Of a stretch of DNA of 64,000 nt, positions 5,845-63,520 are shown piece by piece (the stretch's first letter is position 1; every line of letters starts with the position of its first letter). The DNA comes from an uncultured delta proteobacterium. GTDB taxonomy: Bacteria > Desulfobacterota > Binatia > Binatales > Binataceae. The notes under the pieces are model-generated. The model worked only from the letters and a program-made list of their open reading frames with translations. It was not told the origin of the DNA and did not search any database. The position numbers and the translations under genes are program-made. The stretch covers positions 1,408,001 through 1,472,000 of the forward strand of contig CAWJET010000001.1 in assembly GCA_963842085.1 (NCBI GenBank). The letters are read 5' to 3'.

Positions 5845-7254
5845 TTAGCGCCGAATCAACCGCGCGGCAAAGAATCCGTCGAGTCCGCCGACGTCGGGCC
5901 GCGTCCGCATGAATCCTCGCGCATCGATAACGTCTCCAAACCCGCCTCTAACCGCTACCCCGCGATCGATTTCGAAATCAGCGTGACGCGCGAGGAATCC
6001 ATCGACCACGCCTTCACCCTCGGCGGGCGCGATGCTGCAAACCGAGTACACGATTGCACCGCCACGACGCACGAGCGCCGCCGCATTCTCGAGCATCCGC
6101 GATTGTGTCGCCGCCATTCGCGCCGGGTCGGTTGGCTTGAGCCGCCACTTGATCTCCGGATGCTCGCGCAAGGTCCCGATTCCCGTGCACGGCGCGTCGA
6201 GGAGCACGTACTCGAAGCTCGAGGGTGCAAGCGGCGCGGCTGCAGTCAGATCGGCGCAAACAAACTCGATGTTGCGATGCCGCAGTCGGCGCGCCAGGCT
6301 GCGCGCGTTCTTGAGTCCGTTGAAATTGAGATCCACCGCGACCACTCGGCCGCGTTCGCCGACGAGCTCCGCGAGATGCGTCGCCTTGCCGCCCGGCGCC
6401 GCCGCACAATCCACCACCGTTGCATCGGCGCGCGGCGCCAGCATTCGCACGACCATCTGCGACGCCTCGGATTGCGCATGGAACAGGCCCTCGCGATAGG
6501 CGCGCGACTCGAAATTCGGCGCGCCCCTCAGCACGATCGTTTCGGGTGCGCGGCCGGGCGCGCCGATCGCGAAACCGTCGGCGCTCAGTTTCTCGATTAT
6601 CTCCGCGCGGGAGCCGCGCGCGAGATTCAGCCTCAGCACGTTGGGCGCGGCGTCGTTGTTCGCCGCCATCAGGCGCTCGGCACTCGCGACTCCGAACCAA
6701 TCGACGAATCGCTCGACCATCCAGCGCGGATGCGAATACGCAACGGCGAGATAACTTTTCTCGCTTTTTTCACCCCGCTCGCGCGCCGGCATCGGCGCCG
6801 TCTCGCCTTTCGTTGTCGCCCGGCGCATCACTGCGTTGATGAAGCCCGACGCTTTGCGCGCTTCGGGAATTCGTTTAGCCAAACTGACCGCGGTGTTCAC
6901 CACTGCGTGACTCGGAATCCGGTCGAGAAATCGAAGCTGAAAAAGCCCCATTCGCATGATCGCGAGCGCCGCGGGTTGAATCCCGGCGAGTTTGCGCCCG
7001 GTCAGATGGGCCAGCTCATAGTCGAGGCGTCCCTGCCACGCGAGCGTACCGAGAACCAGGCGCGTGATCAGGCGGCGATCGGCAGGCGCAAATTCGGGCA
7101 AGCGCGCGCCCAGCAGAACGTCGGCGTACGCGGACTCCTGGTCAACGCGGTACAGAATCTCGACCGCCGTCAGCCGCGACGCGAGGCCTTCGTCCATCCG
7201 CGTCCGCGAGCTCGATGGTGCGCCGACTTTCACTTTCGCCGGTTCTTCGCTCAT
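5845..7254 (-). CDS. rsmB: 16S rRNA m5C967 methyltransferase RsmB
   Basis: NusB-like N-domain, DCAAAPGGK, DAPCTG, YSVCS, DGFFAA; follows fmt. Confidence 0.95.
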   Translation of the reverse strand: MSEEPAKVKVGAPSSSRTRMDEGLASRLTAVEILYRVDQESAYADVLLGARLPEFAPADRRLITRLVLGTLAWQGRLDYELAHLTGRKLAGIQPAALAIMRMGLFQLRFLDRIPSHAVVNTAVSLAKRIPEARKASGFINAVMRRATTKGETAPMPARERGEKSEKSYLAVAYSHPRWMVERFVDWFGVASAERLMAANNDAAPNVLRLNLARGSRAEIIEKLSADGFAIGAPGRAPETIVLRGAPNFESRAYREGLFHAQSEASQMVVRMLAPRADATVVDCAAAPGGKATHLAELVGERGRVVAVDLNFNGLKNARSLARRLRHRNIEFVCADLTAAAPLAPSSFEYVLLDAPCTGIGTLREHPEIKWRLKPTDPARMAATQSRMLENAAALVRRGGAIVYSVCSIAPAEGEGVVDGFLARHADFEIDRGVAVRGGFGDVIDARGFMRTRPDVGGLDGFFAARLIRR

Positions 7255-8201
7255 CGGCCGAATCGCGCGCCCGCTTCCACGCGTTTGCCGCGAAGGAAAT
7301 CAGCCGCCGAAATTCTCTTTCGTCCCGGTGCCTGCACCTCGACGAGCCTGAGTCGTCCGATGCCGCACTGGACAACGGGATTCGGCTTCACGCTGACAAT
7401 CGTGCCGGGAGAACCGTTTGAGGCCGCGTCCTCGACCGCCGCGCGCCAGATGAGAACTTCGTCACGACCCAAACGGGTGCGCGCCACCGGCCACGGATCG
7501 TACGCGCGCGTCATCCGTTCGATCTGCACGGCGGTCGCAGTCCAGTCGATCACCGCATCCTTCTTTTCGACCTGCGCCGTGTAGGTCGCGAGCGATTCGT
7601 CCTGCGGCGTTTCGACCAGCGCGCCGCGCGCGGTGAGATCGATCGCCTCGAGCATCGCGGCCGCACCAAGCTCCGCGAGCTTCGCCTTCAGCGTCCCCTG
7701 CGTGTCGCTCGGCTCGATCGGAATCTTGCGCTGCAAATACATCGGGCCGGCGTCCATCCGCTCGACGATCCGCATGATCGTGACTCCTGTTTCGGCATCG
7801 CCCGCCAGGATCGAGCCTTCGACCGGGGCAGCGCCACGATGCCGCGGCAATAGCGATGCGTGCACGTTCATCGGCGCGATCCGTGCAACGTCGAGAACCG
7901 AGTTCGGCAAAATTCGCCCGTAAGCGGCCACCACCAGGAGGTCGGGTTCGAATGCTTTCAGCTCGTTCAGGAATTCAGGCGTCCGGATTTTGATCGGCTT
8001 CAGCGTGGGAATTTTGCGACTCGCCGCAACCGCACCGACTTCGCTCGGCTCCGTGCCGAGCCCGCGCCCGCGCGGACGATCGGGACGCGTGACTACACCG
8101 ACGACTCTGAACTTGGCTCCAGAAGCTGCCAGCAGCCGTTCCAGGATATGGGCCGCCAAGGCCGGCGTGCCCATGAAGACGATCTTTAGTGTCTCGGCGA
8201 T
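7251..8201 (-). CDS. fmt: Methionyl-tRNA formyltransferase (start codon uncertain)
   Basis: KIVFMGTP, VVAAYGRIL, NVHASLLP, MDAG; conserved N-terminus extends upstream of the first ATG (8174). Confidence 0.95.
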   Translation of the reverse strand: MAETLKIVFMGTPALAAHILERLLAASGAKFRVVGVVTRPDRPRGRGLGTEPSEVGAVAASRKIPTLKPIKIRTPEFLNELKAFEPDLLVVAAYGRILPNSVLDVARIAPMNVHASLLPRHRGAAPVEGSILAGDAETGVTIMRIVERMDAGPMYLQRKIPIEPSDTQGTLKAKLAELGAAAMLEAIDLTARGALVETPQDESLATYTAQVEKKDAVIDWTATAVQIERMTRAYDPWPVARTRLGRDEVLIWRAAVEDAASNGSPGTIVSVKPNPVVQCGIGRLRLVEVQAPGRKRISAADFLRGKRVEAGARFGR

Positions 8202-8202
8202 T

Positions 8203-8745
8203 TTAGATCCGCACCGTGGAGGGTCGCGCGTCGTCAGCTTTTCCCTCCTTGATTAGCTTCTTCAGTTTGCGCTTGTAGAGTTCGCGCTTGATTCGGCTGA
8301 TGCGGTCGATAAAGAGCTTGCCGTCCAGATGATCGATCTCGTGCTGCAACGCCACCGCGAGCAACTCGTCGGCTTCGATCTCGATCTCTTTCTCGTCGGG
8401 CGTCCACGCGCGCACCAGCACATGCGCCGCGCGCTCGACGTCGGCCGTGTAATCGATCACCGACAGGCATCCCTCTTCCCATACGATCTTGCCTTCAGCC
8501 TCGACGACCTGGGGATTGATGAGTTTCAGCAGATGCTTGCCGGGCTGCTCGTGATCGGTGTCGAGCACTATAATCCGCTTCGACTCACCCACCTGCGGTG
8601 CGGCAAGACCCACGCCCGGCGCGGCGTACATGGTCTGCACCATGCTGTCGATCAGCCCTTCGACATTGCCGTTGATATTCCTGACCGGGGCGGCCGGCTG
8701 TTTGAGCGAGTCGTCGGGAAATCTGCGAATTTTCAGCAGCGCCAT
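8203..8745 (-). CDS. def: Peptide deformylase
   Basis: GVGLAAPQ, EGCLS, QHEIDHLDG; start MALLKIRRFPD. Confidence 0.97.
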   Translation of the reverse strand: MALLKIRRFPDDSLKQPAAPVRNINGNVEGLIDSMVQTMYAAPGVGLAAPQVGESKRIIVLDTDHEQPGKHLLKLINPQVVEAEGKIVWEEGCLSVIDYTADVERAAHVLVRAWTPDEKEIEIEADELLAVALQHEIDHLDGKLFIDRISRIKRELYKRKLKKLIKEGKADDARPSTVRI

Positions 8746-8770
8746 CTCGAATACCGATTTTACAAATCTA

Positions 8771-9715
8771 TCAAAGGGTGATTGGCCCGGCGAGTCCGAG
8801 CGGAGCGAGAAACGATTCGACCGCGCGAATGCACTCGGCGGGACGCTCGATTTGAAGAAAGTGCGTCGTGCCCGGGATCGCTTCGTACGGCAGCCCGAGC
8901 TCTTCGGCCATCGCGCGGCCAATCAACGCCGGCGGCATCACTTCGTCGAGCGTCGGATCTCCGCACACGAGTTTCACCGGCACCGGGCAATGCGCCATCT
9001 GCGGCCAAAGATCGGGATTCGCGCCGCTGGAGAAGACCTGCGCCTCGTATTCGCGCGGACACGCGAGAATCCAGTCGCCGCTCGCGCGATCGTGCCGCAG
9101 CGTCGCCCGCGCCATCAGCTCGTACGCCTCAGGCACCCATCGCTTGAAGCGCCTGCGGAACTGCTTCGCCAGTTCCATCGGATCCTTGTAACGCTCGGGG
9201 CGCCGCGCCGCGCGCGAAGCGAGCGACTCCTTGTCGGATTGCTGCAGGTTGCGGACCGGATGCCCTTCGCGCGGATAGACCGGCGGATCGAACAGCACCA
9301 GCGCGTCGAATCGACGGCCGTACTTGAGCGCGTGCATTGCGGCCGTGACGCCCGACAAGGAATGGAACAGGCCGGCGGCAGGCTTCGCGCCAAGCTCGCG
9401 ATTGATCGCGTGCCAGACGACGTCCATGTCGGCGACGAAGTTCTGCCACGTATGCCCCGCCGCAGTATGCAGCGGATTGTGCCCGTGGTTGCGGAAGTCG
9501 AAGACGATCACTTCGTAGCGCTCGCGCAGCGGCCCCCAGAATGGAAAGTAGCCGTCGATCGCGAGCCCATTGCCGTGACTGAGCACGAGGCGCGGCGCGC
9601 CGGGGATACCGTGCTGGTGAACGTGGATCGTCGCGCCGTCGTGCATCTTCACGTCGAAGGCGTGACGCGCGCGCGGCACATGATGCGTCGGGCGATGTTC
9701 GTTCGTCTCGTTCAT
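8771..9715 (-). CDS. Alpha/beta fold hydrolase
   Basis: HGNG oxyanion motif, DFRNHG, HSLSG nucleophile elbow, C-terminal THF His. Confidence 0.85.
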   Translation of the reverse strand: MNETNEHRPTHHVPRARHAFDVKMHDGATIHVHQHGIPGAPRLVLSHGNGLAIDGYFPFWGPLRERYEVIVFDFRNHGHNPLHTAAGHTWQNFVADMDVVWHAINRELGAKPAAGLFHSLSGVTAAMHALKYGRRFDALVLFDPPVYPREGHPVRNLQQSDKESLASRAARRPERYKDPMELAKQFRRRFKRWVPEAYELMARATLRHDRASGDWILACPREYEAQVFSSGANPDLWPQMAHCPVPVKLVCGDPTLDEVMPPALIGRAMAEELGLPYEAIPGTTHFLQIERPAECIRAVESFLAPLGLAGPITL

Positions 9716-28974: not shown

Positions 28975-30477
28975 ATGTTCGTGCGGCTATCAGGTCTTTC
29001 TTTTTCATATACCGATTCCATTTCCACTCTGACCGGCGTGACCCTCACCCTCGCGCCGGGATGGACAGGAGTGGTCGGGCCTAACGGCGCCGGCAAGACG
29101 ACCTTGCTGCGCCTTATCGCGGGCGAGCTCGAGCCGGCGGCCGGTCACATCTATCTGGATCCGCCGCGCGGCGTGATTCGAGCGTGCGCGCAGACCGTCG
29201 AAGCGATGACACCGGAAATCGCCGCGTTTGCGCACGCGAGCGACGGTGTCGCGCGCCGAATCCACGGCGAGTTGCGCCTCGACGCTTTTTCACTGGCACG
29301 ATGGCCGACGTTGTCGCCGGGAGAGCGCAAGCGATGGCAGGTCGGCGCGGCGCTCGGCGCGGAGCCGGCGGTGCTGATGCTCGATGAACCGACCGACCAT
29401 CTTGACGTCGAGGCGCGCGAGCTGCTGATTGCGGGCCTCGAACGCTTTCGCGGCGTCGGGATCGTTGTCTCGCACGATCGCGCGCTGCTTGATCGAATCA
29501 CGAATCATACGGTGCGCGTGCATGACGGCACCGTGCGCATTTGGCGAGGCTCGTACTCCGACGCCAAGCGCGCGTGGGAAGCGGAGGAGCGCGAGCATTA
29601 CGCGGAATACGAACGGCTGAAGCATCAGCGGGAGAACCTGGCGCGCCGCCTCGCCGACCGACGCGCGTTGCAGGCCGCGGCCGCGGCCAATACAACTCGC
29701 AAGCGGATGAAAGGCCCGCGCGATCATGACGCGACCAGCTCGCTGGCAAAAGGGAAGGCGAGGGCGGGCCTGGCGCGACAATCGCACGAGGCAGGAATAC
29801 TTCGGCGCGAAGCGGACCGCGTGTCGGAAAGGCTCGGCGAGTACCGGTTTCGCAAGCCGAAGGGGCGCTCGATTTTCGTCGATTACGTGCCCGCGCCGGT
29901 GGCCAAGGTCTTCACCCTCGACGAGGCGGCGATTTTCGCGGGCGAGGCGCGAATCCTCGAGGACGTCCATCTGGCGGTGCTGCGCGACGCGAAAATTCGG
30001 GTCGCCGGCCCCAATGGAATCGGCAAGAGCACGCTGCTGGCCGCGATGATCCGCGGCGCGCATATCCCGCCCGGACGCACTCTCTACCTGCCCCAGGAAC
30101 TCACGGCGCGCGACGGCGTCGCGATGCTCGACAGGGTCCGCGAGCTCAACCCCGACGATCGCGGCCGCGTGCTTGCGTTGGTCGCGGCGCTGGGCGTCGA
30201 TCCGGACAGGTTGCTCGAGTCGGCCGCGCCGTCGCCCGGCGAGGCGCGCAAGCTCGCCATGGCGTACGGCCTGGGCCGGCAGGTGTGGGCAATGGTGCTG
30301 GACGAGCCGACCAACCATCTGGACATGCCGGCGATCGAGCGACTTGAGGAAGCGCTGGCCGAGTATCCCGGCGCGATGGTGATCGTGACGCATGACGACG
30401 CGCTGGCGAAAAGGTGCACCAGGGTCGAGTGGCGGCTGGATGACGGCCGCGTCGAGGTAGCAGAAGGCCTACATTAA
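28975..30477 (+). CDS. ABC-F family ATPase (ribosome-associated, possibly ARE-type)
   Basis: Two NBDs (GPNGAGKT...LDEPTDHLD; GPNGIGKS...LDEPTNHLD), long basic helical linker, no TM domain. Confidence 0.9.
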   Translation: MFVRLSGLSFSYTDSISTLTGVTLTLAPGWTGVVGPNGAGKTTLLRLIAGELEPAAGHIYLDPPRGVIRACAQTVEAMTPEIAAFAHASDGVARRIHGELRLDAFSLARWPTLSPGERKRWQVGAALGAEPAVLMLDEPTDHLDVEARELLIAGLERFRGVGIVVSHDRALLDRITNHTVRVHDGTVRIWRGSYSDAKRAWEAEEREHYAEYERLKHQRENLARRLADRRALQAAAAANTTRKRMKGPRDHDATSSLAKGKARAGLARQSHEAGILRREADRVSERLGEYRFRKPKGRSIFVDYVPAPVAKVFTLDEAAIFAGEARILEDVHLAVLRDAKIRVAGPNGIGKSTLLAAMIRGAHIPPGRTLYLPQELTARDGVAMLDRVRELNPDDRGRVLALVAALGVDPDRLLESAAPSPGEARKLAMAYGLGRQVWAMVLDEPTNHLDMPAIERLEEALAEYPGAMVIVTHDDALAKRCTRVEWRLDDGRVEVAEGLH

Positions 30478-30512
30478 CCTTCCTGGCGCAGCGAAGAATC
30501 GCGCGGGGCGCT

Positions 30513-30530
30513 TGACACATCGGGTTGTCA
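30513..30530. promoter_or_regulatory. Inverted repeat TGACA-N8-TGTCA, candidate regulator site
   Basis: Upstream of a TAGAAT -10-like hexamer (30552) and the DUF2946-like leader. Confidence 0.3.
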
Positions 30531-30587
30531 GACGGCAGGCTCGATGAGAGCTAGAATCCGGCGACGACCATCGGGCCGGAAGTTCCG

Positions 30588-30923
30588 ATGATATCCAGCT
30601 TTCACAAATGCGGCAGAGCGGGGGCGCGCACCATTGCTACATTCTGCGCCGCGCTGATCCTGGTTTCGCAGCTTATCGGCGTCGCTCATTTTCATGAGGG
30701 CGCGGTCTCGCGCGACGGGGTTGTAACCACCCAGCTCAGCGTGTACGAGGGGCTCTGCCCCATTTGTCAACTCGCGCTCCATGCGCCGGGCTCGCTCGCC
30801 GCGGCGACGACGGTCCAGCGCAGTCCTGCTATCGCCGAGACGATATTCATCGCCGCGCCAATTCGATTCGCGTCGCCCGTCTTCTCGACGGCGCGCGTGC
30901 GTGCTCCTCCCGTATCGCTCTAA
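30588..30923 (+). CDS. DUF2946/CruR-like leader protein with RAPP arrest motif
   Basis: N-terminal hydrophobic segment, AHFH, CPIC..ALH, C-terminal RAPP 3 codons before the stop; directly upstream of a TBDT. Confidence 0.8.
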   Translation: MISSFHKCGRAGARTIATFCAALILVSQLIGVAHFHEGAVSRDGVVTTQLSVYEGLCPICQLALHAPGSLAAATTVQRSPAIAETIFIAAPIRFASPVFSTARVRAPPVSL

Positions 30924-31030
30924 GCCCCCTTTTCGAAAGATTCGATTCTTCTCGTGCGCGCGACCGTTTCGCGCGCCGCCACTCGCGCATCGGAAGCGTG
31001 GGCGGAAACTTGAATGCATGGGAGCTTGCG

Positions 31031-33445
31031 ATGAGAAGGAGTTTCTTTGGGTTGATCTCGGCAGTAGCGATACTGATTCAACTGGCTATTTGCATGCCGG
31101 CACTGGCCGCTAATTTGAAGACTACGGCAACGAAATATCGAGTCACGGGCGTGGTGAAGGACGCGCTCGGCAGACCGCTCAAACAGGCGGCACTGTCTCT
31201 TCAGGGCTCCAACGGGCGGGTCGTGGCTCACTCGACGAGCAACGATGCAGGTGAATTTTCCTTCAGCGAGGTCAGCCGCGGCACCTATGCGGTGGTGGCA
31301 ACCAAGGAGGGATTCAAGACCGCGACCGAGATCGTCACGGTCTCGACCAAGGGCGCGGCGCCGGTGGTGCTTGCGATGGAAGCCGAGAAGGCGGTCAGCC
31401 TGAGGGTCGCGGCAACGCGATTGAATGAGGCGCGCAACTCCTTGTCGCCGAACACAGGTGGCAGCAAATACACGTTTACCCAGCAGGCTATCAATGAATT
31501 GCCGCAGGGCAACAATACGCCTCTAAACCAGGTGATTCTGCAGGCGCCGGGCGTCGCGCAGGATTCGTATGGACAGCTCCACGTCCGCGGTGATCACGCC
31601 AATCTTCAGTACCGGATCAACGGCGTCCAGCTTCCCGAAGGGATCACTGCCTTCGGACAGGTGCTGAGTCCGCGCTTCGCCCAATCGATCAGCCTGCTGA
31701 CTGGAGTCCTGCCGGCAGAATACGGCCTGCGAACGGCCGGGGTCATCGACATCAAGACCAAGGACGGGCTGCTCAACCCGGTCGCCGACGTGGATTTTTA
31801 CGGGGGACAGCGCGGAACGACTCAGCCGAGCTTCGAGTACGGCGGCTCGAAGGGCAACTTCAGCTACTTCGTGACAGGGCAATATCTCGGCACCGATCGC
31901 GGACTCGAGCCGCCAACCTCAGGACCTACCGCGATTCACGATACCAGCAACCAGGGCGCGGGCTTCGGATATTTCTCGTACTTCCTGAATCCGACGACGC
32001 GGCTGAGCTTGATCACGGGGACCGCCATCAATCACTTTCAGATTCCCGCCAACCCGAATCAGCCGCAGGCGTTCGTGCTGGCAGGAGTGCCGGTATATCC
32101 GTCGGCCAAGGTACGCGAGAACCAAGACGAGCAAAACTACTTCGGTGTGCTGGCGCTGCAGGGCACGGTTGGAGACAATTTCGATTATCAGATTGCGCCG
32201 TTCAGCCGTTACTCGGCGGTTACTTTCAATCCCGACCATACCGGCGACCTGATCTATGACGGCGCCGCGTCGCGAGTTTTTCGCAGCGACTGGAGCAACG
32301 GTTTTCAGCTCGACACGGCATATCACGGAATCGCCAGCCATACATTTCGCCTGGGCGGATACTTCGATGCCGAGCGCGTCGAGATCGACAATCATGAGTC
32401 GACATTCAAGGCCTTCCCGGACGGCACGCAAATGCCTCCTTACGTGCCCATCTCGTTCGTTGACGACGTCGGGCTGCAGACGTGGATCTACAGCGGGTAC
32501 CTACAGGACGAATGGAAGCCGATCGAAAAATTGACCTTTAACTACGGGGTCCGCTTCGACCTGTACGACGGACTGGTGCGTGCGGATCAGGCGAGTCCTC
32601 GTGTTGCGGCTGAATACAAACTATTCAGGGGCACGACGCTGCATGCTGGATACGCGCGGCAGATGACTCCACCCGAGACCGAACTGGTGCTGGTCAGCGA
32701 TATAAAACAAACGGAAGGCACGACGGGAGCACCGCCGTCGAAGGGTAACGGCACACCGACGGTCGAGCGTGATCATTTGTTCGATGTGGGTGTGATTCAG
32801 GACGTTCTCCCCGTTCCGGGGCTGCAAGTCGGGATCGATTCGTACTACAAGAAGGCTTCCGAACTGATCGACGAAGGACAGTTCGGACCCGCTCTAATCT
32901 TCGAGACCTTCAACTACAACAAGGGGCGCGTCTGGGGAGTCGAGTTCACCGGTTCGTACAATCACGAAAATATCTACGCCTACGAGAACTTCGCCTATAG
33001 CGTCGCGCAGGGGACGCAGGTGGAATCGGGGCAGTTCAACTTCGCGCCGGACGAGCTGAAATATATCAACAGCCACTACATCTTTCTCGATCACGACCAG
33101 ACCTTCACCAATTCTGCCGGGGCAGTTTACAACTGGCGCGGATGGATGTTCAGCGTCGATGGAATATACGGGAGCGGGCTCAGAAGTGGGTTCGCGAACA
33201 CGGGAAACCTGCCATTCTATATCCAGGTGGATGCGGGCATCACCCGGCGCGTACCGGTGCCCAACAATGGTGGGGTGCTCGAGTTTCGTGGCGCGATCGT
33301 GAACCTCTTCGATCACACCTACCTCGTTCGCAACGGCACCGGCATCGGCGTGTTCGCCAATCAATACGGACCGCGCCGCGCGTTGTACGGCGGGATAAAA
33401 TGGGAACTGCCATTCACCAAACCTGCCGCTACGCAGGCGCCATGA
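31031..33445 (+). CDS. TonB-dependent receptor with N-terminal carboxypeptidase-regulatory-like domain
   Basis: Signal peptide, VTGVVKDALGRPL domain, plug HVRGDHANLQYRINGV, YLQDEWK, NLFD...RALYGGIKW; start at ATG after GGGAG. Confidence 0.92.
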   Translation: MRRSFFGLISAVAILIQLAICMPALAANLKTTATKYRVTGVVKDALGRPLKQAALSLQGSNGRVVAHSTSNDAGEFSFSEVSRGTYAVVATKEGFKTATEIVTVSTKGAAPVVLAMEAEKAVSLRVAATRLNEARNSLSPNTGGSKYTFTQQAINELPQGNNTPLNQVILQAPGVAQDSYGQLHVRGDHANLQYRINGVQLPEGITAFGQVLSPRFAQSISLLTGVLPAEYGLRTAGVIDIKTKDGLLNPVADVDFYGGQRGTTQPSFEYGGSKGNFSYFVTGQYLGTDRGLEPPTSGPTAIHDTSNQGAGFGYFSYFLNPTTRLSLITGTAINHFQIPANPNQPQAFVLAGVPVYPSAKVRENQDEQNYFGVLALQGTVGDNFDYQIAPFSRYSAVTFNPDHTGDLIYDGAASRVFRSDWSNGFQLDTAYHGIASHTFRLGGYFDAERVEIDNHESTFKAFPDGTQMPPYVPISFVDDVGLQTWIYSGYLQDEWKPIEKLTFNYGVRFDLYDGLVRADQASPRVAAEYKLFRGTTLHAGYARQMTPPETELVLVSDIKQTEGTTGAPPSKGNGTPTVERDHLFDVGVIQDVLPVPGLQVGIDSYYKKASELIDEGQFGPALIFETFNYNKGRVWGVEFTGSYNHENIYAYENFAYSVAQGTQVESGQFNFAPDELKYINSHYIFLDHDQTFTNSAGAVYNWRGWMFSVDGIYGSGLRSGFANTGNLPFYIQVDAGITRRVPVPNNGGVLEFRGAIVNLFDHTYLVRNGTGIGVFANQYGPRRALYGGIKWELPFTKPAATQAP

Positions 33446-33493
33446 AACCCAGGTCGCGCATCGGGCGTCAGTTATCGTAAGGAGAGCTGAGGA

Positions 33494-34168
33494 ATGCAGG
33501 AACTATTAGTAGCGTGGAACGCCATCAAGTACGGCGGCGCGATGGTTTATCCGCTGCTGGCGCTCGGCGCTCTCGCAATCGCCATAACCATCGACCGCGC
33601 CGTGCTCTATACGCGATGCCTGCGGCTGCCGGCGCAGCTCGCCAACTTGATCGAGACGTTTGGATTTTCGTGGGTCGAGCTCGAGAAGCGGCTGCACGAT
33701 CTCGGGCCGCGCAACGCGTACGGGCGCTTCCTTCAGGTGATCGCCGACAATCGCAACAAGCCCGCGTGGTGGGTCGAATCGAGAGCCGGCGATGAAGCGG
33801 GCCGGATCGAAAAGACGCTCGCCCGTGGACTCTGGGTGCTCGAGACTGTTGTCACCGCGGCGCCGCTGCTGGGCCTGCTCGGCACCATCGCGGGCATGAT
33901 GCAGTCGTTCAACGTGATCGGCGCGTCAACGCTGGTCGCGCCGACTCAGGTGACGGCGGGCGTGGCGCAGGCGCTGATTTCGACCGCGCTCGGCCTGCTG
34001 ATCGCGGTGATTGCGCTGTTCGCGTTCAACCTCCTTTCCCGGACGCAATCGCAGGCGCTCGACACGATGGAGCGGCTGGGCTCGCGGCTGGTCGATCATA
34101 TTCGGCTCGACCAGGAAAGCGGCGGCGAATCCGAGCTCGTCCCGCGCCCGGCGGCGGTCGCGCGATGA
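33494..34168 (+). CDS. exbB: ExbB/MotA/TolQ proton channel
   Basis: APLLGLLGTIAGM, GVAQALISTALGL. Confidence 0.9.
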   Translation: MQELLVAWNAIKYGGAMVYPLLALGALAIAITIDRAVLYTRCLRLPAQLANLIETFGFSWVELEKRLHDLGPRNAYGRFLQVIADNRNKPAWWVESRAGDEAGRIEKTLARGLWVLETVVTAAPLLGLLGTIAGMMQSFNVIGASTLVAPTQVTAGVAQALISTALGLLIAVIALFAFNLLSRTQSQALDTMERLGSRLVDHIRLDQESGGESELVPRPAAVAR

Positions 34169-34190
34169 GCGCGCGCATCGGAGAGATACG

Positions 34191-34595
34191 ATGAAGCTCC
34201 AACGGGCGCGCCATTTTCGTCACGGGCGAATCGAAATCATTCCGATGATCGACGTGATGTTCTTTCTGCTGGTGACGTTCATGCTGGCGTCGCTGTCGAT
34301 GCAGAGTCTCAACTCGATCACCGTCAATCTGCCCAGGGGCGACGCCGAATCGCTCGAGCATCGCGAGCCGATCACGCTGACCGTCACCCACGACAGTCAC
34401 ATTTTCATCGACAAGACTCCCACCACGCTCGACCAACTGGCGTTCGTGCTCAAGCCGATGCTCAAGGCGAACGACCTCGGCGTGGTGGTCAACGCCGACA
34501 GCGACGCGCCTGAGGGCACCGTGGTGGAGGCGATGATCCAGGCGCGGCGCGCGGGCGTCGAGCATTTCCTGATCGCGGTGAAGCGCAAGCAATGA
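34191..34595 (+). CDS. exbD: ExbD/TolR
   Basis: IEIIPMIDVMFFLLVTFM, VNLP, NADSDAP; start MKLQRAR after GGAG. Confidence 0.92.
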   Translation: MKLQRARHFRHGRIEIIPMIDVMFFLLVTFMLASLSMQSLNSITVNLPRGDAESLEHREPITLTVTHDSHIFIDKTPTTLDQLAFVLKPMLKANDLGVVVNADSDAPEGTVVEAMIQARRAGVEHFLIAVKRKQ

Positions 34596-35338
34596 CCGAC
34601 GCCGCCCGCCTTCTCATGCAACCGCCCGAGCTCGACGAACCGGCGCGGCGCCTGCTCTTTGTAATCCCCGCTGCGATCGCGATCTGGGCGATCCTGCTGA
34701 GCGGATTTTCGCTCATCCTGATGCGCACGAAAGCGCCGCCCCCGGAGTTGCAGCCGATCGAAGCCCGGTTGGTCGAGATACCTCCGGCGGTCGGCGGGTT
34801 GCAGGGCGGCGGCGCGGTTCATGCACCGGCGCCGGCGATTCCTCATCCGACGACCGTACCGATCGTCAAACCCCATCCGGTGGTCCATGAGAAGAAGCTC
34901 GCGGCGCCGATGCCGCCGGTGATTCGCTCTCCTTACGGCACGGAGAAATCCACCAACGCGCCCAGCGTCGGAGAAACCTCCGGCGCGAAAGCGGGGACGG
35001 CGACGGAAAGCGGCGCGAGCGGCGGTTCAGAAACCGGCGAAGGCTCGGGCGGCGGCGGAATTGGCAGCGATACGGTGGGCGCGCGCGCGATCTACGCGCC
35101 GACCCCGATCATACCCGACGACCTGCGCGAGGACGTGATGCAGACCGAGGCCGTCGCGCGTTTCAAAGTCTCGTTCGACGGCACCATCGAGGTCACGCTG
35201 GAAAAGCCGACTTCGAGTCCGCGTCTCAACCAGGTGCTGCTCGACACGCTCAAGCAGTGGAAGTTTTTCCCCGCGGTGAAGAACGGCGTCGCGATCAATT
35301 CGTCGTTCGAAGTTCGAATACCTATTTCAGTTCAGTAA
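34592..35338 (+). CDS. tonB: TonB family energy transducer
   Basis: N-terminal TM anchor, Pro-rich linker, C-terminal WKFFPAVKNG TonB_C pattern. Confidence 0.85.
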   Translation: MTDAARLLMQPPELDEPARRLLFVIPAAIAIWAILLSGFSLILMRTKAPPPELQPIEARLVEIPPAVGGLQGGGAVHAPAPAIPHPTTVPIVKPHPVVHEKKLAAPMPPVIRSPYGTEKSTNAPSVGETSGAKAGTATESGASGGSETGEGSGGGGIGSDTVGARAIYAPTPIIPDDLREDVMQTEAVARFKVSFDGTIEVTLEKPTSSPRLNQVLLDTLKQWKFFPAVKNGVAINSSFEVRIPISVQ

Positions 35339-35377
35339 ATCCCTTTTGCCTCATCCCAAGAGTTTGTGAGGAAAGTT

Positions 35378-35785
35378 GTCGGTTATCGGAGTGCCGGCTC
35401 CGAGTCATCGCTCTTACGAAGCGAGCGACGCGCCACAGCTTGTCATCCCGACAACGGGAGCGTTAGCGTCGGGAGGAGGGACCTCGGACAGCTTCGCGCC
35501 ACGCGAAGCCGGTTCCGGTCTCTTCGTTCGCACGCCGCGCGCGCTCCACTTCACTCTTCAGGAGGATGAACTCATCGGCCTGGTCGGTTATCGGAGTGCC
35601 GGCTCCGAGTCATCGCTCTTACCAACGAGCGACGCGCCACGGCTTGTCATCCCGACAACGGGAGCGTTAGCGACGGGAGGAGGGACCTCGGACAGCTTCG
35701 CGCCACGCGAAGCCGGTTCCGGTCTCCTCGTTCGCGCGCCGCGCGCGCTCCACTTCACTCTTCAGGAGGATGAACTCATCGGCCT
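35378..35785. repeat. Tandem duplication of a ~204-bp non-coding unit containing a TGTCATCC element
   Basis: 35378-35581 and 35583-35785 are near-identical (a few substitutions, one 1-nt indel). Confidence 0.92.
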
Positions 35786-36096
35786 TATGCCCTCGACGCC
35801 AACGCGCTAGAATGCTTGACGATGGACAACGCTCATCGAGCGCGTCCGGTCCGGCTCCCCGAAATCATCCGACGTAATTCCCAGCGCGCCGCCCTCCGCT
35901 CAGTGCCGAGCGCCAGCCTCTTCCGAAAAACTAATTTTGACGGAACGAACCCACCGATAGTGGTACGCGGGTCGCAAACCACAATTAGTGGCCTGGATTA
36001 CTGTCCCGATCCCCGCTGCGGTTCCGGAAAGAACATCCTGATGTTGAGAGAATGAAACACGAATCGCTCAGAAATCGAGACACAACGACGAGGAAT

Positions 36097-37284
36097 TCAC
36101 GCGACACAGCACATGCGTTCGACGACTTTGCGAATCATCGCCGGCCCGCGTTCGAAGGCGTCGCGGCGGACGTACTCGTTGGGCTGATGCGCCTGCTCGA
36201 GGTCGCCGGGGCCGCAGATGAGCGAGGTGACGCCCGAGCCGGTGAACCATCCGCCGTCGGTGGCGTAGAGCGCGCCGCCCGAGGTCTTTGCCCCGGTCGC
36301 CTCGAACAGCGCGGCTTCCAGAGCCGTCCCGCGCGGCGAGTCGAGCGGCGGCACGACATTCGACAGTGCGATTTCAATTTTCGCGCGATGCTCGCTACCG
36401 GCATAGTCGTGGCCGTCGAGCGCGTCGAGCCGGCGCGCGATCTCGCGGTAAACGTCGAGCGGATCGGCGTCGGGCAGCGTGCGATAGCTGATGCGCAACG
36501 TGCATTGTTCGGCGATCATGTTGAGCGCGATCCCGCCGTGCACCGTTCCGAAATTCAGCACGTCGTACGGCGCATCGGGAAAAATCTTCGCGTATTCGGC
36601 AGGCCGCCGCGCGGCGAGCTCCCGCTGAAAACGGCCGATCGTGTCGATCACCCGGCCCATCACGGCAATCGCGTTGACGCCCCTTGCCGGTGCGCCACTA
36701 TGACCGCCGATGCCGCGCACGGTTACCCCGAACGAGACGATGCTCTTGTGCGCGTGAGACACGCCCCACGAAGTCGGCTCGCCGATCCATGCCAGGCGCG
36801 GCACCGGCGTGTCGCCCAGGATTTGTTTGAGCGCGGGCGCGACGCTATGGGCGCCGAGACAACCGACTTCCTCGCTCGCCGTGAAGACGAATACCAGCGG
36901 ACGTTTGAGCCGGGTCGAATCAAGCGTGCGCGCCGCGTCGAGGCATTGCGCGATGAACCCCTTCATGTCGCTGGTGCCGCGGCCGTAAATTCGCTCTCCC
37001 GCGGGTTCGAGCTTGAGCGGCTCACGCTCCCATCCGGGCTGTCCGTCGAAGGGAACGGTGTCGACGTGCGCTGAAATTATCAGTCCGTCGACGCGCGGCG
37101 GTCCAAGCCACGCCACCAGGTTGGCCTGCGAGACGCCGAGCAGCTCGACCGGTTGCAGTGCGGTTTTGAATCCCCGCGGTGCGAGTTCTCCTGCGATGAA
37201 TTCCATCGCGTCGCGATCGCTCTTTGCGCTGACCGTGTCGAACGCGACGAGCCGGGTTGCGACTTCGTACAGATAGTCATTCAT
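36097..37284 (-). CDS. argE: M20 family acetylornithine deacetylase-like amidohydrolase
   Basis: SAHVDTVP, GRGTSDMKG, EEVG, GEPT, GHSG, AHQPNE. Confidence 0.82.
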   Translation of the reverse strand: MNDYLYEVATRLVAFDTVSAKSDRDAMEFIAGELAPRGFKTALQPVELLGVSQANLVAWLGPPRVDGLIISAHVDTVPFDGQPGWEREPLKLEPAGERIYGRGTSDMKGFIAQCLDAARTLDSTRLKRPLVFVFTASEEVGCLGAHSVAPALKQILGDTPVPRLAWIGEPTSWGVSHAHKSIVSFGVTVRGIGGHSGAPARGVNAIAVMGRVIDTIGRFQRELAARRPAEYAKIFPDAPYDVLNFGTVHGGIALNMIAEQCTLRISYRTLPDADPLDVYREIARRLDALDGHDYAGSEHRAKIEIALSNVVPPLDSPRGTALEAALFEATGAKTSGGALYATDGGWFTGSGVTSLICGPGDLEQAHQPNEYVRRDAFERGPAMIRKVVERMCCVA

Positions 37285-62241: not shown

Positions 62242-62578
62242 CGAGCCTCCACGAGTGTTGATCCCGTACTTCTTCAGCGCCGTGAGGATCACCTGGTTCT
62301 GCATCGAAAGGCCAGTGCCGTAGGTTAACTGTCAGTATGATCCTGTGCGCGAACCGAGCCAGGAGCGTGCGCTGCGTGGTCGGTTCCGGCAAGGTGCCAT
62401 GCATAACGCCGACGGTTTTCGGGAACCGCCTGCCGGCCTCGACCAGCCGCCAATTGGAGCAGTACTATAACGCTACATTTGGTTGACCAAACGATACGGA
62501 TTGGCGGATAAATTTCCAGTCTGGCCGTTGGTCGTGCCCGTGGCTGGCGGTCGGGAGACTCGTCAGGAGGTAGGTCGC

Positions 62579-63520
62579 ATGCCCAACTTTCGAATTCTGT
62601 CCTGCGACGGCGGCGGAATCCGGGGAGTGCTGAGTGCGGTGCTGCTTAATCGACTTCTCGGCAAGTATCCGGCGTTGTTGCAGGATCGACCCGGCACGAT
62701 CACGATGTTCGCCGGCACCTCGACCGGCGGAATCCTGGCTCTCGGTCTGGCTGCCGGTCTCACCCCCGCGCAGATTCGCGACCTCTACGTTACGAACGGA
62801 AAGCTGATCTTTGATTCCTCGTGGGGGCGCGATGTGGTCGAGCTGGGAGGACTCAGCGGCTCGAAGTACGACAACGTGAATCTCAAGCAGATTCTGCAGG
62901 ACACCTTCGGCGCTCTGAAACTCAAGGATCTGAAGCCACGCGTTCTGATCGCATCCTTCAGTTTGGACAATCAGGCGGCCGCTCCTTCCCCCCGCACTTG
63001 GAACCCGAAGTTCTTCCACAATTTTACCGGCGCCGACAGCGACGGCGAATCTCTGGTGGTTGACGTCGCCATGTCCACCAGCGCGGCCCCGACCTACTTC
63101 CCCTCGTACGGCGTGTTCATCGATGGCGGCGTGATTGCCAACAATCCGAGCATGGCCGCCGTGGTGCAGGCGATGGATGGCCGCAATCAGGCCGCCGAGC
63201 GAGCGACGCTGCAGGAGATCACGCTGCTGTCCGTCGGTACGGGCGCCTCGCTGCAATACATCGACGGGCAGAACCACGATTGGGGCGACGCGCAATGGAT
63301 CAAGCCAATCCTCAACGTGATGATGGACGGCAGCGTCGGGGTGGCTGATTTCGAATGCCGGCAACTCCTCGGCGATCGCTATTGTCGCGTCGAACCCATA
63401 TTCCCAGCCGGAAAGTCGTTCGCGATGGACGATGTCAGCAAGATCGTGGACCTGATGGACCTCGCAAATTCATTCGATCTCGCCGGCACCGTCGCATGGC
63501 TCCAGACCTCAGGATGGTGA
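62579..63520 (+). CDS. Patatin-like phospholipase
   Basis: DGGGIRG, GTSTG, SAAPTYF, DGG; SD AGGAGG before ATG 62579. Confidence 0.93.
   Translation: MPNFRILSCDGGGIRGVLSAVLLNRLLGKYPALLQDRPGTITMFAGTSTGGILALGLAAGLTPAQIRDLYVTNGKLIFDSSWGRDVVELGGLSGSKYDNVNLKQILQDTFGALKLKDLKPRVLIASFSLDNQAAAPSPRTWNPKFFHNFTGADSDGESLVVDVAMSTSAAPTYFPSYGVFIDGGVIANNPSMAAVVQAMDGRNQAAERATLQEITLLSVGTGASLQYIDGQNHDWGDAQWIKPILNVMMDGSVGVADFECRQLLGDRYCRVEPIFPAGKSFAMDDVSKIVDLMDLANSFDLAGTVAWLQTSGW

Follow-up and report, generated by a model that had tools for sequence, protein, structure and literature searches.

The stretch of DNA examined here comprises 64,000 nucleotides (nt) from an uncultured delta proteobacterium of the family Binataceae (GenBank assembly GCA_963842085.1, contig CAWJET010000001.1, positions 1,408,001 to 1,472,000, forward strand) and is referred to throughout as the window. 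It carries a small upstream open reading frame (uORF) ahead of genes for a TonB-dependent receptor (TBDT), ExbB, ExbD and TonB. This leader is very likely a CruR-type arrest leader, in which a ribosome stalled close to the C-terminus would keep the operon on, metal bound by the nascent peptide would relieve the stall, and the change would be passed to the downstream genes through one or both of two routes. The anatomy of the leader, its conservation, the selection acting on its peptide, the synteny of the operon and the homology signal are seen in the sequences, and the stall, the metal response, its polarity and both routes are inferred.

An earlier interpretation made from the letters alone (the sequence-only reading) had described a 111-residue frame with a hydrophobic N-terminus, an HxH pair, a CPIC motif, a further His and an Arg-Ala-Pro-Pro (RAPP) motif, and every one of these elements was recovered in place (Table 1). 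The hydrophobic stretch is a candidate signal peptide or signal anchor of the export type and ends with G-V-A immediately 5' of His34. RAPP is followed by V-S-L and a TAA stop, which places the motif three codons from the end of the frame. The AlphaFold2 model, built on an 85-row alignment, contains helices only at residues 10-33 and 58-65, with a predicted local distance difference test score (pLDDT) of 70.9 and a predicted template modelling score (pTM) of 0.35. A six-frame translation of the whole window holds R[AG]PP within eight residues of a stop at five places, and the leader alone among them combines a frame of more than 26 codons (stop to stop) with a CxxC. The antisense frame at 30528-31019 (163 residues) was rejected as a gene: it matches no Pfam family and stays open for at least 150 residues in only 12 of 33 loci.

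Conservation is strict among close relatives. A word-indexed protein search returned 167 proteins at E <= 0.01; the close set consists of the query and the 119 listed among those 167, which are 63-79% identical to the query and, where named, come from Candidatus Binatus. In all 120 of these listed sequences CPxC, RAPP, HxH and a CxxC-RAPP spacer of exactly 44 residues are present, and the three-residue tail after RAPP is kept in 119. A single scan of species-representative genomes yielded 35 orthologous loci, 36 with the window, nearly all labelled as metagenome-assembled genomes (MAGs) of Binatus, Binataceae or 'delta proteobacterium'. Their phylum is Binatota, far from the lineages that have been studied, in keeping with the distant lineage suggested earlier. 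The motifs are retained at all 36 DNA loci. The RAPP codons change only synonymously across them (CGC/CGT; GCT/GCG/GCA/GCC; CCG/CCT/CCA/CCC; CCC/CCG/CCT), and the entropy per codon position is 0.57, 0.36 and 0.96 in the 20 indel-free orthologs, that is, the 20 of 36 uORFs that run exactly 111 codons from the expected start, the rest being dropped for differences in length or frame. Such a pattern indicates selection on the peptide rather than on the RNA and marks the leader as a conserved, translated gene. The C-terminal end (A-R-V-R-A-P-P) is the most strongly conserved portion of the protein, and its middle is the least conserved.

The same architecture recurs in distant relatives. Among 1.84 billion cluster representatives, an exhaustive profile search detected 116 proteins at E <= 0.001, from which alignment A3 was assembled as the query plus 84 sequences of 22-44% identity, with long, truncated and motif-less ones excluded. 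H34, C57, C60, R105, P107 and P108 are invariant columns in A3, and at least 90% of the rows also share Q28, H36, H65 and A106. A broader distant set of 249 proteins of at most 250 residues was pooled, in part from a profile search with distant members that returned 191 proteins; RxPP and CxxC occur together in 239 of them (231 RAPP, five RGPP and three RSPP), and the ten motif-less proteins appear truncated or frameshifted. Across the 239, the CxxC-RxPP spacer is exactly 44 residues in 234, the tail after RxPP counts three residues in 152 and four in 75 (227 in all), and a His occupies the fifth position after the second Cys in 227. HxH is found in 237, placed 20 residues ahead of CxxC in 186 of these; small residues stand at -3 (231 of 237) and -1 (221 of 237) before its first His, and on sequence grounds this arrangement would resemble a signal-peptidase site. 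At 50% identity the clade has about 116 representatives, nearly all of them unannotated. A plasmid collection held no match for the leader query (P0001) or for one distant relative (P0157).

Pfam links the leader to one family only, DUF2946 (PF11162), whose profile positions 63-117 of 117 align with residues 56-108. The sequence-only reading had proposed a DUF2946 relation and a hidden Markov model (HMM) search as a check on it; that search, with its sole match running from CxxC to RAPP, upholds the relation, though at a score below the curated cut-off. At E <= 1, DUF2946 is matched by 67 of 85 clade members and any other family by at most three. The database's own annotation assigns PF11162 to one ortholog with 66% identity (P0239), and in a protein atlas DUF2946-named clusters are among the nearest (scores 0.95-0.96), ranked behind the query's own Binatota cluster and a cluster in which Armatimonadota make up most of the few placed members.

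CruR (Bp2923) of Bordetella pertussis provides the functional precedent; here and below, published systems are described from the available portions of the cited papers. Its CxxC and RAPP are 45 residues apart, a spacing that varies within the family by one or two residues, and RAPP sits three residues from the end; CXXC and RAPP are both required, the length of the spacer matters, and CruR acts via Rho (PMC9426467). According to the same source, DUF2946 leaders stand first in operons that often hold a TBDT, are followed by a long spacer, and in the case of CruR can lose the signal peptide without loss of regulation. Arrest of CruR has been reported in the PURE system (PMC12992588). The Binataceae leader likewise has CXXC, RAPP about three residues from its end, the spacer length, and a first-gene position with a long spacer before a TBDT. 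Because all of these sequence-level CruR features are present, the HMM score alone excepted, it was filed as a divergent CruR-like member of the superfamily. We consider it highly probable that the leader represents a divergent branch of the DUF2946/CutF-like superfamily and serves as a CruR-type regulatory leader.

Pfam and NCBIfam matches bear out the complete TBDT-ExbB-ExbD-TonB operon that had been claimed downstream. ExbB, ExbD and TonB are all present and co-oriented, and the ExbD stop overlaps the TonB start (ATGA). The receptor opens with a CarboxypepD_reg (transthyretin-like) domain; its plug region matches TIGR01783 positions 5-156 at 2.1e-09, far under that model's whole-protein cut-off, and no Pfam Plug match is listed for it. 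Searched against the Protein Data Bank (PDB) with phmmer, the receptor returned no sequence at E <= 0.001, and a profile matched CirA, YncD and PqqU only weakly; the NCBIfam OprC model (TIGR01778) gave no match either. Assignment of the receptor's N-terminal domain as a NikL nickel/cobalt subunit (E 3.3e-4, 20.7 bits vs 100) was discarded as reflecting a shared transthyretin-like fold only.

In tblastn comparisons, 34 of 35 loci have a receptor gene after the leader, and 30 have the complete set of four. Two of the exceptions lie at contig ends (L023 and L027), two deviate (L020 and L031), and L028 is a second copy of the leader. Identities are lower for the leader (54-76%) than for the receptor (73-89%, with 46% in L029) or ExbD (86-93%). 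Conservation of RAPP, CxxC and synteny in related genomes, the check that the sequence-only reading had put forward, thus came out in its favour, with the motifs at 36 of 36 loci and the four genes at 30 of 35. A convergent M20 peptidase gene ends the operon in 29 loci, and the ABC-F gene upstream in the window is not syntenic in relatives. The second leader copy (L028, 6001-6560, in the same MAG as L002) carries ARMRAPP, is 56% identical by tblastn and has the same spacer and ribosome-binding sequence; it is followed by a 34-codon receptor stub, BacA/UppP and an SbmA/BacA-like ABC transporter, and looks like a decayed duplicate. At L029, a record labelled Acidiferrales, the receptor (6448-8847) is 46-48% identical to that of the window, the leader 65%, and ExbB and ExbD 86-90%, which suggests that receptors are exchangeable under the same leader.

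Judged by homology, a ribosome translating the leader would stall at RAPP with the two Pro codons in its P and A sites. Toeprinting placed the CruR stall with two Pro codons in these sites (PMC12992588), and cryo-electron microscopy of ApdA and ApdP shows the same stall position (PMC10951233). During such a stall, the CxxC-x4-H element would lie about 42-50 residues from the peptidyl-transferase centre, just beyond the exit tunnel, with HxH 20 residues further out. Without metal, the stall would last and the downstream genes would be expressed. Metal on the Cys and His ligands, probably including those of HxH, would compact the nascent chain and relieve the stall, after which the released ribosome would terminate three codons on and expression would drop. 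This polarity, with the stall as the on state and metal as the off signal, is favoured because CruR sets the precedent and because the regulated genes import something. Copper is the default candidate for the sensed metal, by homology; given the three additional His residues, Ni, Co or Zn are possible alternatives.

A stall could reach the operon in two ways. As in CruR, the stalled ribosome may cover or block a C-rich, G-poor Rho loading region and so avert premature termination; the Rho loading site of CruR was mapped to such a C>G region (PMC9426467). Alternatively, it may open a helix that the last leader codons, the stop codon and the adjoining C-run would form with the Shine-Dalgarno (SD) sequence and start codon of the receptor gene. 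Output through the Rho route alone is plausible, at somewhat under an even chance; through the helix route alone it is rather doubtful, and joint action of both is unlikely. A ribosome covers about 15 nt 3' of its P-site codon. Stalled at 30906-30908, it would reach the stop codon, uncover the AUG-side portion of the helix, abut the C-run and sit in the middle of the C>G region.

The spacer RNA is compatible with both routes. Because the receptor gene starts at 31031, the spacer measures 107 nt, in agreement with the earlier figure, and its length ranges from 104 to 114 nt across loci. From the ARVRAPP codons to the receptor start, the 36 sequences align with a mean column identity of 73%, and the hairpins and the SD are nearly invariant. 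The hairpin arms noticed earlier, GCGCGCGA/TCGCGCGC and CCGCCAC (30977-30983)/GTGGGCGG (30998-31005), are all present. The RNAalifold prediction contains both hairpins together with a long-range pairing between CCC in the post-stop C-run and GGG of the SD. Covariation was counted on a structure taken from the minimum-free-energy fold of the window. Hairpin 1 pairs in 92% of cells; the two basal pairs of hairpin 2 change on both sides (C-G to U-A, three sequences) and still pair; in the post-stop/SD helix, 91.7% of cells are paired and one pair shows a double change. The overall covariation score was 0.132, compared with 0.113 in shuffles, and was reached by none of 500, with a warning from the tool that related sequences inflate such scores. 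For 31 of 36 sequences, partition-function folds pair the G's of the SD with nucleotides 32-45, just past the stop, at P >= 0.5. When the first 30 nt were blocked, mimicking a ribosome at RAPP, the median unpaired probability of the AUG rose from 0.03 to 0.57. A different helix had been proposed earlier, between the RAPP-coding CTCCCGT (30907-30913) and ATGGGAG (31018-31024). It can form in the window but is not conserved, with 78.2% of cells paired, U-A in 8 of 36 sequences and no covariation; judged from the alignment, the C-rich anti-SD right after the stop is the better candidate.

The composition expected of a Rho-utilisation site recurs as well. In the 32 loci long enough for the analysis (four of 36 were dropped), mean C/G is 1.2-1.7 over 78-nt windows that open between 90 and 0 nt ahead of the stop-codon end, compared with about 1.0 in coding windows of the operon and 0.4-0.8 in the second half of the spacer, and the C>G region was found in all 32. 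Rfam reports a single tRNA in the whole window and nothing in 30400-36200 even at E <= 1, so a riboswitch of a described family is ruled out. An intrinsic attenuator was also rejected: the spacer has no terminator-like site, and no U-tract follows either hairpin.

Table 1. Features of the leader, its flanking RNA elements and the downstream operon, in window coordinates
Feature	Position	Strand	Details
Conserved upstream block, candidate promoter/operator	30509-30545	+	TTGACA 30512-30517; TGACA-N8-TGTCA dyad
Hairpin in the 5' untranslated region (5'-UTR), UCCGGC (30557-30562) / GCCGGA (30575-30580)	30557-30582	+	Overlaps leader SD GGAAG (30578-30582)
Leader ORF (uORF)	30588-30923	+	111 amino acids (aa); opens at first start codon after in-frame stop
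N-terminal hydrophobic helix, residues 10-33	30615-30686	+	After K/R-rich start; AlphaFold2 helix
H34-F35-H36 (HFH)	30687-30695	+	Candidate metal ligands
C>G region, candidate Rho-utilisation site	30727-30999	+	C/G 1.2-1.8 in 78-nt windows
C57-P-I-C60 then His65	30756-30782 (CPIC 30756-30767)	+	Candidate metal site
R105-A-P-P108	30900-30911	+	Putative arrest motif
Candidate anti-SD AAGCCCCC	30922-30929	+	Last two stop-codon bases and C-run; pairs with GGGAGCTT at 31020-31027
Hairpin 1, GCGCGCGA (30956-30963) / TCGCGCGC (30969-30976)	30956-30976	+	5-nt loop; nearly invariant
Hairpin 2, CC-A-CTCGCGC / GCGTGGG-C-GG	30979-31005	+	RNAalifold, fold, covariation count
Receptor SD GGGAG	31020-31024	+	6 nt before ATG at 31031; nearly invariant in alignment A2
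TBDT, 804 aa	31031-33445	+	PF00593 2e-18 (residues 366-742); PF13620 3.5e-14
ExbB	33494-34168	+	PF01618, 88.6 bits
ExbD	34191-34595	+	PF02472, 84.3 bits
TonB	34592-35338	+	PF03544 24.9 bits (cut-off 24.6); TIGR01352 28.4 bits (cut-off 27.1)

Several observations weigh against a CruR-type arrest leader as proposed here. The DUF2946 match scores 14.9 bits (E 0.045), under the curated gathering cut-off of 23.7 bits, and E <= 1e-4, estimated to sit near that cut-off, is reached by no more than 6 of the 85 distant members and one of the 25 close ones. No metal-homeostasis gene was found among 16 neighbouring ORFs (Pfam) or 28 other long ORFs of the window (NCBIfam), and no resemblance to OprC or to a copper TBDT of solved structure was recognised in the receptor (the CrtA structure was not confirmed in the PDB copy searched). 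Covariation is thin: hairpin 1 has zero compensatory changes, and only 4 of 28 pairs are changed on both sides, a count equalled by 119 of 500 shuffles. The 158-nt fold from RAPP to the TBDT is not unusually stable (z = -1.26, with 25 of 200 shuffles as stable). Blocking the first 30 nt moved the median unpaired probability of the SD merely from 0.20 to 0.24, and a terminating ribosome would open the anti-SD helix in the same way. As for the Rho site, the C>G peak fails to reach the top 5% of the background in 4 of 32 loci, and this in a comparison that flatters it, the maximum of 20 windows being set against single background windows.

Among other explanations, a leader of CutF type and opposite polarity would have metal induce or prolong the stall, melting the anti-SD helix and turning the operon on. 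The clade lies in the same superfamily as CutF, where stalling in response to copper unfolds a stem-loop that hides the SD of the following gene (PMC9973294; bioRxiv 10.1101/2025.02.05.636593); here, 31 of 36 sequences are predicted to form an anti-SD/SD helix, and the N-terminus appears to be of export type. The motifs of the leader are nevertheless those of CruR (CxxC, RAPP and a spacer of about 45 residues) and not the CxxxC and PPP of CutF. Moreover, induction of uptake genes by excess metal would make little sense, the targets of CutF-type leaders being detoxification genes (PMC9973294). We regard this polarity as improbable.

The putative export-type N-terminus could instead point to an arrest peptide that reports on export or on disulfide formation in the periplasm, with Sec pulling or oxidation of the CxxC pair ending the stall. 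ApdA and ApdP watch over protein localisation, and RAPP uORFs are also found ahead of DsbA/thioredoxin genes (PMC12992588). No Sec, YidC or Dsb component is encoded downstream, however; three His conserved together with two Cys at fixed spacing suit a metal site better than a redox pair, and regulation by CruR works without its signal peptide (PMC9426467), which leaves such a monitor a very small share of the probability. Much the same small share falls to a stable exported metal-binding protein, acting as a chaperone or as a ligand-delivery partner of the receptor, with a non-regulatory RAPP. CutF was itself first conjectured to be a copper chaperone (PMC9426467), and a putative export-type N-terminus with conserved Cys and His ligands would suit this role. 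Yet the model shows nearly no fold (pTM 0.35), a chaperone would have no need of a conserved C-terminus, a fixed tail of three to four residues and a 44-residue spacer, conservation is lowest in the middle of the protein, and the long, conserved and structured intergenic spacer suggests regulation.

The CruR-type reading rests on a detailed likeness that also has limits. Both leaders are small first genes with a CxxC and an export-type N-terminus, putative in the Binataceae case, and both peptides are predicted to be poorly structured. The residue spacer differs by one (44 against 45 in CruR), each leader has a C>G region at its 3' end, and a long GC-rich intergenic spacer precedes the TBDT (107 nt here, 162 nt in CruR). 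CruR is longer, however, at 145 residues as opposed to 111, and the Pfam score is below cut-off here. The Binataceae leader also has an invariant HxH, 20 residues ahead of CxxC, and a His at the fifth position past the second Cys, whereas Roy et al. (2022), in the text available, mention a semi-conserved Cys only. ExbB-ExbD-TonB takes the place of the PepSY_TM gene of the CruR operon, no CrtA/BfrG character is recognisable in the receptor, the host belongs to Binatota, and the present system is known from its sequence alone.

CutF of Rhodobacter capsulatus shares the superfamily, a small leader that is exported, here putatively, a Cys/His site, a C-terminal proline stall motif and a predicted structure at the SD of the next gene. 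It differs in that CutF (CutF-like cluster 15) has CxxxC, PPP, a dependence on EF-P and a multicopper oxidase target switched on by copper, whereas CxxC, RAPP and an uptake target are found here. The CutF-like survey distinguished 29 clusters with Cys, His or mixed sites, and TonB-like proteins were the second commonest downstream neighbours (PMC9973294). His-only clusters adjoin HupE/UreJ genes, and according to Ozturk et al. (2023) not all such leaders are copper-specific (PMC9973294). Across Gram-negative phyla, genes for TonB-dependent receptors are preceded by an excess of RAPP/RGPP uORFs (PMC12992588). The leader belongs squarely to this class, described by Fujiwara et al. (2025), with RAPP near the C-terminus, a putative localisation signal and a downstream TBDT. 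Their survey was sorted by the annotation of the downstream gene; the His/Cys set, the 44-residue spacer and Binatota are not described in the portions available. ApdA, ApdP and SecM (Morici et al. 2024, PMC10951233) differ more clearly: as far as that text extends, they monitor Sec/YidC, precede secretion genes and are without a Cys/His ligand set, and the genes that follow the present leader (TBDT, ExbB, ExbD and TonB) are not protein-localisation machinery.

RAPP uORFs before TBDTs and Cys/His variants of such leaders are thus already published. In a search of full-text literature, no paper combined 'Binat' with 'arrest peptide', and none joined 'upstream ORF', 'TonB-dependent', 'RAPP' and 'histidine'. 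The main text of neither PMC9426467 nor PMC12992588 refers to ExbB or ExbD. New in comparison with the available text of the cited papers are a large clade mostly missed by Pfam, a five-position Cys/His pattern and an exact 44-residue ruler; new as well are the occurrence in Binatota and one leader governing a receptor together with its own energiser. Because the class itself is already published, the gain lies in breadth and detail and not in a new principle. CruR-type nascent-peptide metal control is extended to an uncultured soil phylum, Binatota. Five conserved candidate ligands, of which two Cys and one His are invariant, combined with the 44-residue ruler amount to a natural experiment, and the clade is suited to testing ligand release of a RAPP stall at the tunnel exit and the effect of His on metal selectivity.

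The clade may further constitute a distinct type of sensor within the CruR/CutF superfamily, although this seems unlikely. Its scheme would read small-x-small, HxH, 20 residues, CxxC, four residues, His, 39 residues and RAPP. If signal peptidase cut after the small-x-small site, between A33 and H34, the mature protein would begin with His-x-His and, together with CxxC and His65, such a leader would read a periplasmic metal that is not necessarily copper. An N-terminal His-x-His would presumably form an amino-terminal Cu(II)/Ni(II)-type or a histidine-brace-type site. If this were true, the leader would tune a dedicated TonB motor along with the receptor.

Control may also be exerted upstream of the leader. 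In alignment A4, the block listed in Table 1 is kept at 23 of 23 loci between flanks that cannot be aligned. TTGACA and a GGCAGGCT-like stretch show little or no variation, and the TGACA-N8-TGTCA dyad is missing in L009, L013 and L018. The block may be a promoter with an operator, which would imply transcriptional control besides the leader. A scan for the sigma-70 consensus found no site in 30300-35700, and sigma-70, MerR-type or sigma-54 spacings fitted to the block by hand were unconvincing. Because the block is conserved and its flanks and neighbours are not, the leader and operon look like a self-contained transcription unit. The arms of the hairpin in the 5'-UTR recur in most rows of A4. 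By analogy with CruR, for which low leader translation has been reported (PMC9426467), this hairpin could hold translation of the leader low.

Downstream, the TonB stop and the convergent M20 peptidase gene are separated by a stretch with a 204-bp tandem duplication (35378-35785; 2.0 copies at 97% identity). Because the peptidase gene directly follows TonB in 29 relatives, the roughly 760 nt at 35339-36099 appear peculiar to this genome. A 144-codon ORF across the repeat matched no Pfam family and nothing in the 35 loci, and Rfam gave no match there. Near the end of the window, an ORF at 62483-63517 on the forward strand matches the NCBIfam model for a CBASS cGAMP-activated (patatin-like) phospholipase at 6.4e-53, with 180 bits against a cut-off of 200, and may be an anti-phage effector gene.

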